DNA of 48,271 bases from Candidatus Falkowbacteria bacterium (GTDB lineage Bacteria; Patescibacteriota; Patescibacteriia; XYB2-FULL-38-15). Made by a program: the position numbers and the translations under genes. How positions within the stretch are numbered: position 1 is the first letter of the stretch; the number at the start of each line of letters is the position of its first letter. Location of the stretch: contig JACRNW010000002.1 in the NCBI GenBank assembly GCA_016214745.1, positions 1 to 48,271 on the forward strand, in the 5' to 3' direction. The notes under the pieces are model-generated. The model saw only the letters and a program-made list of their open reading frames with translations, was not told where the DNA came from and ran no database searches. Below are positions 10,023 to 12,761 of the stretch, one piece after another.

Positions 10023-10290
10023 CCTTCCAAACGTCCTGGCTTCTAAAAGTATGCCAGGAAAGTTCAACCGTCAGGTTGAGCGCTTGCTAGAGTTTTGCGA
10101 AATCACGCAGCGATGCGTGGCAAGCAGCTTCAGCGAGTCAGGGAGCGGAACCCATCACAATGAGTTCCGCCCTTTTCCGAGACCGCCACCCAAAAAGGTG
10201 ACGGACTCAGAGAAGGAAGTTTCCCGGCCGCGAATTATCGCGTGTCCGGGGCAAAGTTCATTGACTTTCGCCGAAAGGCGGACAAAAGAA
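10023..10290 (+). ncRNA. Putative structured RNA element, copy 1 (unknown family)
   Basis: Multi-hairpin intergenic sequence repeated at 10884 and 12544 with compensatory changes. Confidence 0.7.
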
Positions 10291-10305
10291 GGAAGGGAGA
10301 CAGAG

Positions 10306-10881
10306 ATGAAGAAGGTAATGGCTCTGTTCGCGGTGTTCATGATCGGCTGCAACAACACGTTCATCGACCTGACTCCGTGCTACGACGTCTACGCAGAAGT
10401 TCTGCCGGAGCTTCCGATGTACGATGATCAGCTGCCTATCCTCGGACTCCGAATCACGAACGATACGTGCGATACGGTATACGTCAAGTACATACTCACC
10501 GAACTTCGGCGGTTGGATGACGACTCGGCATTTTCCATCTGCAGCGTGTTCGATTGCTCGACATTCAGAGCATACCAAGATGGAAGGCTGGCCGTGGAGA
10601 GTGCGCCGCCCGGTGGAGGCAGCTGTTTGCTTGAGATTCACGTCAACTGGACTGGAACGGGCGATGGTTTGCCGTTCGGCGAAATCTCATCCCGCGGTTC
10701 AGCCGAGTTCGTGTACACCGCGATGATCCGGCCAGATGCTCCCTCGGGTCGATACCAGTATATCCTCACGGGGTACTGGATCGATGAGTTCGAGGTCGTG
10801 ATGAGCTGTAACGTCGAGGATCAGCCCGTTCCGAGCAAGCTCGGCGTTCCGATTCTCGGACCGGTCATTACCGTTTTGTAG
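10306..10881 (+). CDS. Lipoprotein of unknown function
   Basis: MKKVMALFAVFMIGC lipobox; aaggaagggag SD; N-terminus shared with the next gene. Confidence 0.8.
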   Translation: MKKVMALFAVFMIGCNNTFIDLTPCYDVYAEVLPELPMYDDQLPILGLRITNDTCDTVYVKYILTELRRLDDDSAFSICSVFDCSTFRAYQDGRLAVESAPPGGGSCLLEIHVNWTGTGDGLPFGEISSRGSAEFVYTAMIRPDAPSGRYQYILTGYWIDEFEVVMSCNVEDQPVPSKLGVPILGPVITVL

Positions 10882-10883
10882 TT

Positions 10884-11135
10884 CCTTCCAAACGTCCTGG
10901 CAAATTCCAAATCAAGTATGCCAGGAAAGTTCAACCGCCAGGTTGAGCGCTCGCTAAAGTTTTGCGAAATCACGCAGCGATGCGTGGCAAGCAACTAAAG
11001 CGAGTTAGAGCGGAACCCATCACAATGAGTTCCGCCCTTTTCCGAGATCGCCACCCAAAAAGGTGACGGACTCAGAGAAGGAAGTTTCTCGGCCGCGATG
11101 TTTCGCGTGTCCGAGGCAAAGTTCTTTACAACAAG
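10884..11135 (+). ncRNA. Putative structured RNA element, copy 2
   Basis: Near-identical to copy 1; differences mostly lie in loops or preserve pairing. Confidence 0.7.
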
Positions 11136-11154
11136 GAAGGAAAGAGAGAAAAAG

Positions 11155-12531
11155 ATGAAGAATACGTTGATGGTTCTGTCCGTGGTTCTGTTCGCGGTCG
11201 GTTGCGACAACACGTTCATCGATTTGAGCAGCGAGTGCGAAACGAGCGCGGACTGCGCCGACGGCGACCCTTGCACGGTGGACATCTGCGACGTCGACAA
11301 CACCTGCGTCCAGATCCCGTCCGACAATCCGGCCTGCGATCCGGTGGACGACCGGGATGCCGACACCGATGCGGATGTCGGAGCCGAAACGGACGCCGAC
11401 GCCGACGCGGACGCTGATGCACACACCGACATCGTTCCCGACGACTACGAGGGCGACGAGCCCGGAGAGTGCGACGATCACGTGGACAACGACCGCGACG
11501 GTCTGTTCGACTGCGACGATCCCGGTTGCGCTCCGGGTCCGGCCTGTGAGACGCCTCCTGGCGCTGACGCCGATGCCGACGCTGATGCTGATGCGGACGC
11601 GGATGCAGACGCCGACGCAGATGTCGGAGTTGAAACGGACATCGACGCGGGCGCTGATGCGGATACCGATGCCGACGCAGACGCCGATGCTGGTTGCATG
11701 CCGACCGAAGAGCTCTGCGACGACCACACGGACAACGACTGTGACGGCGAAACGGACGAGTTGCCGGGGTGCGTATTTTGCCCCTCGGATTCCATGATCA
11801 CCTGCTACTATGATGCCGACCACGATGGCTACGGCGTTCCGGTACCGCCGATACGCGCATGCCCCTCTGCCTGTGTCGGCGACTGGACACCATTTTCAGG
11901 CGACTGCCGCTACTGGGATTCGGCTAGTTATCCCGGGGCAGAAGAAGTCTGCGATGGGCATGATAACGACTGCGACGCCGGAGTGGACGAAGGATGTTCC
12001 TGCTCTGACGGCGAAGTCGTTGTTTGCCACTGCGGCGAGGTGCTCGGAGAGTCCCATTGCGGCACCGATCATCTTTACGACGGGTCATGCGATTGTTCGG
12101 TCTGCGGGGACGGCGTCTGCTTCACGATCGGGGTATTCCAAGAGAATTGCCCGGCTGATTGCGGACTTCCCACCTGCGGAGACGGTGTCTGTGGCAGCGA
12201 TGAGACGTTGTTGACGTGCTCTCGCGATTGCGGCATGTGCAGGTTCAACTGGAATCTCGCCGGCTCGGCTGATCCGCCAGCGGCATGCGGTTCCTGGTGG
12301 TACATCTGGGACCGAGTACGTTGCGGCGGCTGGATTGGCCTATCGGCTGAGACTCCCACTACGGCGTGTCTCGATGCACTCCGGGCGCGGCTCGCTCTGC
12401 CTCCGGGCGTCGAGGGCCGCATCTACGGAGTCGATTCGGCCGGCCATACCTTGGCCGTCTCGATCGTCGATCCGGCATCGTCAGGCGGGCCGACGTGGCC
12501 GAGCCAACTCGGTTGGGCGTATTCCTTCTAG
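11155..12531 (+). CDS. Cys/Asp-rich lipoprotein with (DA)n linkers, DNDCDG repeats and CGDGVC repeats (myxobacterial style)
   Basis: Lipobox FAVGC; DADADA tracts; [32 protein letters not shown] twice. Confidence 0.88.
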
Positions 12532-12543
12532 CCAAGAAGTTTG

Positions 12544-12761
12544 CCTCTGACAAATTCCCAAAAGGTTATGTCAGAGGAAATCGTCCGAGTCCTTCGGACG
12601 GTGGCTCGTAGATTTTCCTAAATCACCGCAAGGTGACAGCAAGAAAAAATACGAGCTTAGAGCGGAACCCATCACAATGAGTTCCGCCCTTTTTCGAGGA
12701 CATCACCCGCCCAAATTCGCTGACGCGAACTTCAGTCGGGTGGTGCACTCAAAGAAGGAGG
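12544..12761 (+). ncRNA. Putative structured RNA element, copy 3 (diverged)
   Basis: Identical 34-nt core at 12660-12693; flanking stems differ in sequence but keep the same pairing order. Confidence 0.65.

Follow-up and report, generated by a model that had tools for sequence, protein, structure and literature searches.

The locus and its repeated spacers

We analysed 48,271 nucleotides (nt) of DNA from Candidatus Falkowbacteria bacterium (assembly GCA_016214745.1, contig JACRNW010000002.1, positions 1 to 48,271), a stretch referred to here as the window, and in it a repeated spacer element that an earlier note had described as a conserved cis-acting RNA organising an array of exported-protein genes. 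The element lies in an island at 9.4-13.5 kb, where the G+C content is 51-61% per kb as compared with about 34-49% elsewhere in the window. Six genes for exported or membrane proteins stand on the same strand of this island, and the spacers do sit among them, as the note had stated. The genes, the spacers and the paired elements P0 to P7 of the latter are listed in Table 1.

Table 1. Features of the island and its spacers, in window coordinates.
Feature	Position	Strand	Remarks
Operon promoter candidate	9259-9287	+	TTGACA-17 nt-TATTAT; 11/12 matches; TG before the -10 box
Leader RNA	9295-9405	+	Covarying hairpin and own intrinsic terminator (stem 9378-9400, then T run)
Gene 0	9574-10011	+	Exported Cys-rich protein, MopE-type motif; PF11617, E 4.1e-06
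Copy 1, P0 5' strand	10023-10028	+	CCTTCC; 11 nt past stop TAA 10009-10011
Copy 1, P1	10034-10059	+
Copy 1, P2	10062-10081	+
Copy 1, P3	10082-10138	+
Copy 1, P4	10145-10170	+	Terminator-like hairpin GCGGAAC/GTTCCGC, then CCTTTT
Copy 1, P5	10171-10216	+	Long imperfect hairpin of T-rich with purine-rich tract
Copy 1, P6	10223-10251	+
Copy 1, P7	10269-10281	+
Copy 1, P0 3' strand	10291-10296	+	Purine tract GGAAGG, ahead of ATG 10306
Gene 1	10306-10881	+	Predicted lipoprotein (signal peptide with lipobox Cys)
Copy 2, whole spacer	10879-11154	+	Begins with TAG 10879-10881; R1 score 218.7 bits
Copy 2, P0 5' strand	10882-10889	+	TTCCTTCC
Copy 2, P1-P3		+	Followed by P4
Copy 2, P4	11010-11035	+
Copy 2, P5	11036-11081	+
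Copy 2, P6	~11088-11116	+
Copy 2, P0 3' strand	11135-11142	+	GGAAGGAA
Gene 2	11155-12531	+	Lipoprotein; Asp-Ala repeats, several CDxxxDNDCDG motifs
Copy 3 (short form)	12532-12772	+	R1 score 101.2 bits; P6 absent
Copy 3, P1	12544-12577	+
Copy 3, P2	12581-12601	+
Copy 3, P3	12604-12656	+
Copy 3, P4	12662-12687	+
Copy 3, P5	12688-12758	+
Copy 3, Shine-Dalgarno tract	12754-12761	+	GAAGGAGG; carried by the P5 3' strand
Three small membrane-protein genes	12773-12976, 12986-13300, 13300-13461	+	Kept at the island 3' end in relatives
Partial fourth copy, p45	13636-13710	+	P4-like and P5-like hairpins, A+T-rich; no gene directly behind
Long terminal hairpin	13716-13807	+	Then TTTTTT; likely operon terminator, read from sequence

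A repeat search of the window returned a 52-nt block in three copies (10140-10191, 11005-11056 and 12657-12708) with 90-100% identity, and copies 1 and 2 are 93-94% identical across 95 and 120 nt. The earlier note had started from a 34-mer common to the three spacers. Its first 30 bases (10143-10172) have three exact forward matches and no reverse match in the very small genome of 923,119 bases; all three are on the + strand and inside the one island, and the reversed 30-nt control has no match in the whole genome. Folding of the three copies with RNAalifold recovered P1, P2, P3, P4 and P5, as well as P6 in copies 1 and 2 only, with 69 pairs of which 8 have changed on both sides. The repeat search, the genome-wide exact match and the consensus fold thus confirm the shared 34-mer, the ordered stems around it and the restriction of P6 to two copies.

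Some other parts of the first description hold for this genome and not for its relatives, which are given below by our G numbers (genomes) and L numbers (loci). The 34-mer and the CACA loop of its stem, P4, are indeed invariant here, but relatives keep the P4 stem and vary its loop, so that the CACA loop is specific to this genome. The unit is also longer than the ~200-240 nt first assigned to it, as it fills the entire gap between the stop codon of one gene and the start codon of the following one (204-317 nt in 19 copies). Besides the three full copies there is the partial copy p45, which sits before the long terminal hairpin, has counterparts at the same place in G005, G001 and G006, and scores 29.1 bits with the covariance model R1 and 61.6 bits with the model R2 (both defined below). 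Moreover, the elements had been said to lead a cargo gene each, but they trail a gene as much as they lead one.

Each spacer starts at the stop codon of the preceding gene, which is TAG in 19 of the 20 copies. A CU-rich motif, with the consensus given for copy 2 in Table 1, follows directly after the stop or overlaps the last codons, as in copy 3, where gene 2 holds TTCCTTC (12522-12528) just ahead of TAG 12529-12531. Many unrelated cargo proteins, in the window and at loci L012-L030, end in Gly/Asp-Cys-Ser/Pro. Given the TAG stop and these shared C-terminal residues, the conserved unit seems to extend a few codons into the upstream gene. At their other end the spacers come in two forms: the long ones (copies 1 and 2) have P6, in some cases also P7, and their start codon is preceded by a separate purine tract; in the short ones (copy 3, G003_c, G006_a and M30) the 3' strand of P5 is itself the Shine-Dalgarno sequence, 8-11 nt from the start.

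Covariation and strand

The copies fall into two deep subtypes, A and B. Model R1 was built from 8 copies of the A subtype, to which the other copies were aligned, because MAFFT alone misaligned P1-P2 of the B subtype. For the analysis of covariation we used 19 copies with E values below 1e-20, which are related sequences in an alignment fitted to the model. Standard pairs occupy 93.9% of 1057 cells in this set, compared to 37.7-44.0% after sliding of the 3' partners by 1-3 columns. Both sides have changed in 31 of 59 pairs, compared to 6-10 after sliding, and the observed values were reached by none of 500 shuffles. The double changes are distributed over P1 (4/7), P2 (8/8), the outer (9/10), middle (2/3) and apical (2/6) parts of P3, and P5 (6/16); P4 has none among its 9 pairs, 7 of which never vary. 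The unpaired stretches of the P1 loop and the internal loops of P3 are conserved across both subtypes, while the stems around them covary.

The compensatory changes that had been noticed around the 34-mer are therefore borne out, and covariation, whose lack among homologues had been named as the sign of a decaying duplication, is present. Because the base changes of the relatives preserve the fold, we regard the element as a real functional RNA, which probably acts on how the following gene is expressed. Pairs of G and U are frequent, at three positions occurring as UG in 15 copies, GU in 17 and UG in 17. On the opposite strand these would be A-C, and for this reason the fold is placed on the strand of the genes.

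Known RNA families and other identities

A cmscan search of the whole window against Rfam 15 gave no match at gathering scores, in agreement with the earlier statement that the element resembles no known RNA family. At E values up to 10, the region 9200-13900 has five sub-threshold matches, none of them on the strand of the element, and the loci of the relatives have only two sub-threshold matches. ARAGORN found no transfer RNA (tRNA) or transfer-messenger RNA (tmRNA) in the window or in six related loci. The element does not encode protein either: every frame on both strands carries stops in most of the 20 copies, and the frame of the downstream gene is free of them in only 3 (17/20 with stops). 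Full-text searching of the literature, which left supplementary files outside, yielded nothing on the element.

Other identities were tried and dropped. A pair resembling RYYYAAC/GTTRRRY in the P2 hairpin of the A subtype could recall an integron attC site, but its halves are only 6 nt apart and it is absent from the B subtype; the boxes are unconserved across subtypes, and many helices are spread over 200-300 nt. The three PF00589 (tyrosine recombinase) genes of the genome are on contigs C7, C15 and C19, none of them near the locus. An internal promoter behind P6 (TTGAC/TTTACA) was rejected as there is no -10 box at the proper distance.

These results support the conclusion that the element is a conserved, structured, non-coding RNA read on the gene strand and without an Rfam family. 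We describe it as a cis-acting structured element of the messenger RNA (mRNA), which is unusual in its size, in its repetition along one operon, in its anchoring at a stop codon and in its reshuffled modules.

Distribution among relatives

By BLASTN of 61 genomes, the element was found in 7, this genome included. With R1 it is present in 7 of 10 genomes of the order (a single family), at one locus per genome; across 151 genomes of the class, 6 have any match, and full copies occur in no other family. The homologue search that the earlier note had proposed has thus given three full copies here and homologues in most genomes of the order. A pattern scan of metagenome contigs returned 14 loci on 10 contigs, one of which equals the contig of G003 in size. 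Exact-pattern scans gave no further match for the 34-mer in genome contigs and none in viral contigs.

The locus is syntenic. On one side of it is a gene for an MraY-like glycosyltransferase, in some genomes together with a DUF559 gene, and on the other a DUF192 gene, which is followed by L21, RecR and DnaB. The cargo genes between the spacers vary by genome; the promoter and leader, the spacers and the 3' block of three membrane-protein genes are kept.

Two further RNA modules were seen at the loci of relatives. The leaders of G003, G006 and G008 contain an extra four-helix module of ~90 nt (L012:6085-6169 on the minus strand, also L016 and L037), whose outer stem covaries among the three genomes. 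In G003 it is a weak match to the tRNA-like domain of tmRNA (24.4 bits, gathering 47), where ARAGORN calls nothing. The other is a hairpin module of ~75 nt in the apical loop of P5 of five copies (L013:3124-3379, L015:4684-4934, L027, L030 and L025); it is also found outside any P5 in the leader of G009 (L014) and behaves like a small mobile or exchangeable RNA hairpin.

The P4-P5 core and the exchange of modules

A second model, R2, covers P4-P5 with the structure of P5 only, since RNAalifold did not call P4 on alignment A8. At E values up to 0.01, R2 finds this core in at least 20 families of the class (26 of the 151 genomes), with clusters of 8 matches each in G092 and G141 and 4 in G143. 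Over 46 distinct P5 sequences, 94.6% of the cells are paired as compared with 45.6-57.1% after sliding, and 13 of 15 pairs have changed on both sides. Each of these class-wide P5 hairpins is directly preceded by a hairpin of variable sequence.

The surroundings of the core differ from genome to genome. In G092 and G141 the G+C content is 60-75% over 18-19 kb, including a GTPase gene and a tRNA-synthetase-like gene, and the arrays precede lipoproteins with DNDCDG motifs; here the distance from the end of the P5 3' strand to the start codon is 1-5 nt in six of eight copies, and -2 and 20 nt in the other two. In A+T-rich genomes the core lies 14-95 nt ahead of a separate Shine-Dalgarno sequence, before unrelated genes. 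The role of the P4-P5 core is therefore, as judged from these positions, not confined to the masking of a start site.

Within the family the spacers are mosaic. In copy 3, P2-P3 match the three G005 copies at 99% identity, but copies 1 and 2 at only 42-43%; its P4, in contrast, has 100% identity with copies 1 and 2 and 79% with G005. In M29, P1 is that of copy 2 and P4 that of G005. The P4 loop is common to the copies within a genome (3/3 here and 3/3 in G005). The mosaic shows recombination or gene conversion among copies and lineages, which also explains the invariant look of the 34-mer in this genome. The idea that the repeats serve cassette mobility gains indirect support from the mosaic modules and from the differing cargo at one syntenic site, but there is no integrase gene near. 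Among sequencing runs, part of the stretch was listed for three DNA runs of one groundwater study and for no RNA run. The contigs of these runs, which are short and of low depth over 9000-14000, did not bear on cassette rearrangement; joints occur in them only at the Asp-Ala and DNDCDG repeats and apparently come from other organisms.

The operon and its surroundings

The strong candidate promoter at the head of the island has a perfect 10-nt inverted repeat across its -35 box (within 9240-9405), which resembles an operator. Promoter, palindrome and leader (~110 nt) are kept in seven genomes, and the leader hairpin has compensatory changes; the only Rfam match of the leader is a sub-threshold one to L20_leader, driven by the terminator. 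The 5' untranslated region of gene 0 (9440-9573) contains P4-, P6- and P7-like hairpins. If the operon is transcribed from this promoter, transcripts of the distal genes would have to pass the terminator of the leader and then the P4 hairpins. For gene 1 and the three small membrane proteins, no function was obtained from Pfam, NCBIfam or the protein atlas.

Between the last membrane-protein gene and p45 (13462-13635) there are ~170 non-coding nt with an open reading frame of 22 codons (13516-13584) that has a strong Shine-Dalgarno sequence. The long hairpin that follows p45 is not in the terminator scan because its loop exceeds the limit of the scan.

The island, at 51-61% G+C, lies in a genome region of ~42%, and the same syntenic site is found in at least 7 genomes. 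As G092 and G141 hold similar arrays, transfer from G+C-rich relatives or biased gene conversion is possible. Upstream (8797-9200) is a gene for a DUF559 endonuclease-like protein with a CCCCTCC/GGAGGGG palindrome behind it. At this site the gene is present in G000, G003, G001 and G009 and absent in G005 and G006, and the P5 loops of L017 and L026 contain palindromes like this one, which suggests that the DUF559 gene and its palindrome are a mobile insertion.

Termination and start-site control

Two parts of the spacer bear on how it might act. When 20 whole spacers were folded, the minimum-energy structure of 15 paired the CU motif with the purine tract before the next start codon (P0) and so closed the whole domain; in three of the five exceptions the motif is upstream of the chosen fold boundary. 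Compared with random 23-mers drawn from the locus, the P0 duplex is stronger than 95% of them in 9 of 20 copies. P0 is thus, with moderate support, a predicted conserved feature, and its role as a mask of the start site is putative. The stem of P4 consists of 7 base pairs (bp) and 3 inner pairs and is followed by CC and then 4-5 U, as assigned by eye. It is identical in 19/19 copies, and its loop varies between genomes. In G008, where the locus has only one gene, this hairpin with six U behind it forms the end of the locus, and in L026 the terminator of the leader occupies the place of P4 before a P5. On account of these two arrangements, a terminator origin of P4 is likely.

How could one spacer serve the genes on both sides of it? 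We propose with moderate confidence, and no more than that, a modular cis-acting intercistronic RNA in which a terminator-like hairpin would be combined with blocking of the following ribosome-binding region, a block that ribosomes would relieve. In the transcribed spacer, the CU tract at the upstream stop codon would pair with the purine-rich ribosome-binding tract of the next gene. Within this closing helix would stand the family-specific hairpins P1-P3 and then P4 with its U tract. P5, of ~19 bp, would pair the U tract with a second purine tract, which in the short form would be the Shine-Dalgarno sequence itself. P4 may be a leaky terminator, so that only part of the transcripts would continue. 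On read-through RNA, P5 (short forms) and P0 (long forms) would keep the next start closed; P0 would be opened by a ribosome that reaches the end of the upstream gene, or else by some factor bound to P1-P3. This would amount to translational coupling by “RNA unfolding”, stretched across 200-300 nt. Coupling of this kind is established for other gene pairs, for example rpmI-rplT at +52 nt, and the spacings named in the review we refer to reach up to +52 nt (PMC12548453).

Several observations weigh against this proposal. When the stop codon and the 12 nt after it were forced open in 19 copies, the mean unpaired probability of positions -18 to -4 rose from 0.47 to no more than 0.53 (control, 0.47). 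The partner of P0 in the long forms is 9-12 nt from the start codon and may not be a working Shine-Dalgarno sequence. A terminator scan with loops of 3-8 nt lists none of the three P4 hairpins, which it missed because their loops are too large; furthermore, C substitutions in the U tract covary with P5, which indicates selection on pairing rather than on termination. No antiterminator or mutually exclusive alternative pairing was found. P5 is not a start-site mask in general, since most cores outside the family have a separate Shine-Dalgarno sequence and p45 is without a gene behind it. The covariation mostly separates the two subtypes, in alignments that are fitted to the model. Finally, the efficiency of coupling generally falls with distance, according to the same review (PMC12548453). 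The conserved cis-acting RNA of the earlier note accordingly stands as a structured element in an array of exported and membrane proteins; which of the functions listed there (antiterminator, translational switch, ribozyme or processing site, cassette-mobility signal) it has is a matter of inference.

Alternative explanations

An alternative of some weight, if an unlikely one, is that the spacers punctuate the mRNA as signals for its processing and stability. An enzyme of the RNase III type, specific for double strands, would cleave the P5 duplex of ~19 bp, or a different endonuclease would attack the A+U-rich stretch that follows it. P4 would then shield the fresh 3' end of the upstream segment, so that each cistron would have a half-life of its own, and in the short form cleavage would release the Shine-Dalgarno sequence. 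The class-wide contexts favour this explanation, because P4-P5 lies between co-directional genes in 26 of 151 genomes, including cases of a P5 without a Shine-Dalgarno sequence. The core is also found at the operon end with no gene behind it (p45), P5 keeps ~15-19 pairs while its apical loop accepts insertions of up to ~75 nt, and a motif of the form GUUC(A/U)UU follows P5, or P6, in many copies. The CU motif at the stop codon and the loops of P1-P3 are, however, left unexplained.

We are doubtful about a wider view, in which gene-cassette arrays that lack an integrase are widespread in this class of ultra-small bacteria and have the spacers as their repeat units. Recombining, structured modules on both sides of each exported-protein gene would bring termination and start control, the cargo could be swapped by homologous recombination between copies and between genomes, and the fold would set the stop codon beside the next start, with handover of the ribosome across 200-300 nt. 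If true, bacteria would have here an equivalent of the devices that viruses use for termination-reinitiation or shunting.

A ligand- or protein-responsive attenuator, with P1-P3 as sensor and P4 as terminator and with every cistron switched by the same signal, is improbable. The stretches of the P1 loop and the P3 internal loops that are conserved amid covarying stems would suit a sensor, P4 and its U tract come directly after P1-P3, and the operon leader has a further terminator. On the other hand, no Rfam riboswitch or T-box matches and no competing antiterminator pairing is seen. In addition, P1-P2 are dispensable, being missing in G006_a, M24 and M26, and the heterogeneous cargo genes are without a common metabolic theme, which is not what is expected of a riboswitch despite the conserved loops.

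That P4 termination and a cleavage at the stop codon release a small RNA of ~150 nt from the 3' untranslated region, with the CU motif as a seed acting in trans on ribosome-binding sites, is distinctly improbable. In its favour, P1-P4 are invariably found behind a gene, beginning at the stop codon of that gene, P3-P4 end the locus of G008 with a plain terminator, and the start regions of genes within the operon itself are complementary to the CU motif. The best partner of the motif, however, is in cis in the same spacer, and P5 and P6 are conserved past the supposed 3' end.

It is very improbable that the repeat acts at the DNA level only, as a recombination scaffold or decaying duplication for cargo swaps with a functionless fold. 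The mosaic modules, the differing cargo at one syntenic site and the P4 loops homogenised within genomes would be accounted for. Compensatory changes, however, keep 93.9% of the cells paired across the subtypes, the G-U pairs single out one strand, covariation of the P5 core extends over at least 20 families, and no integrase is near; recombination and RNA function are, besides, compatible. Least probable is a self-cleaving ribozyme acting between the genes of the polycistronic RNA, for although the complex, conserved multi-helix fold in several copies might suggest one, the search with core models for hammerhead, twister, pistol, hatchet, HDV-like, hairpin and glmS ribozymes gave only a single sub-threshold match to the hammerhead family HH9 (19.5 bits, gathering 52, E 0.32, 12643-12722), which is on the minus strand and in copy 3 only, so that the hammerhead was dropped.

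Comparison with known systems and biological meaning

The proposed intercistronic coupling is closest to that of rpmI-rplT and of the MS2 coat and lysis genes, where pairing links the end of the upstream frame to the next ribosome-binding region and is opened by ribosomes (PMC12548453). In comparison to rpmI-rplT at +52 nt, the distance here is 204-317 nt, P0 would close a domain of 6-8 helices, and the device is repeated along the operon; it is a prediction from sequence, with a weak calculated effect of opening. With intrinsic terminators and attenuators the spacers share the G+C-rich hairpin and U tract of P4, with six U in G008. The internal P4, however, has a loop of 9-15 nt, and its U tract begins 2 nt past the stem, is often interrupted by C and doubles as a strand of P5.

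The RNase III sites of the T7 early genes and lambda sib are intercistronic hairpins of about two helical turns, and the hairpin is complete only on read-through. The spacers would resemble them in both respects, with a domain that is far larger and has a CU motif linked to the stop codon. Integron attC arrays consist of promoter-less cargo genes on the same strand, each followed by a folded repeat, an imperfect hairpin of 57-141 nt with GTTRRRY/RYYYAAC boxes. Here, too, same-strand cargo is trailed by folded repeats and varies between relatives; in contrast to attC, there is no single hairpin of 57-141 nt, no conserved boxes and no integrase near, and the repeat extends to the next start codon. 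The vsp and vlp loci of Mycoplasma encode variable surface lipoproteins with conserved 5' regions and signal peptides. A conserved untranslated region and a lipoprotein signal peptide before divergent mature parts are also seen in the island, but within one operon, where the conserved part is a covarying RNA fold and no phase-variable tract was seen. RNA thermometers of the fourU type pair a run of U with the Shine-Dalgarno sequence, as does the short form of our spacer (12688-12758). P5, with ~19 bp, is far more stable, stands in a large domain and is mostly without a working Shine-Dalgarno sequence.

If the fold controls the next cistron, the spacers would be an unusually large and repeated intercistronic control domain. 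The P4-P5 core offers an RNA motif that can be tested throughout a class of uncultivated, host-dependent bacteria, on whose gene regulation, to our knowledge, almost nothing is known. If the proposed coupling is true, structure-mediated coupling would extend to several times the distances named in the review (PMC12548453). The locus itself is a syntenic, G+C-rich and recombining array of surface or exported proteins, and as such is a plausible hot spot for variation in how these bacteria meet their surroundings.

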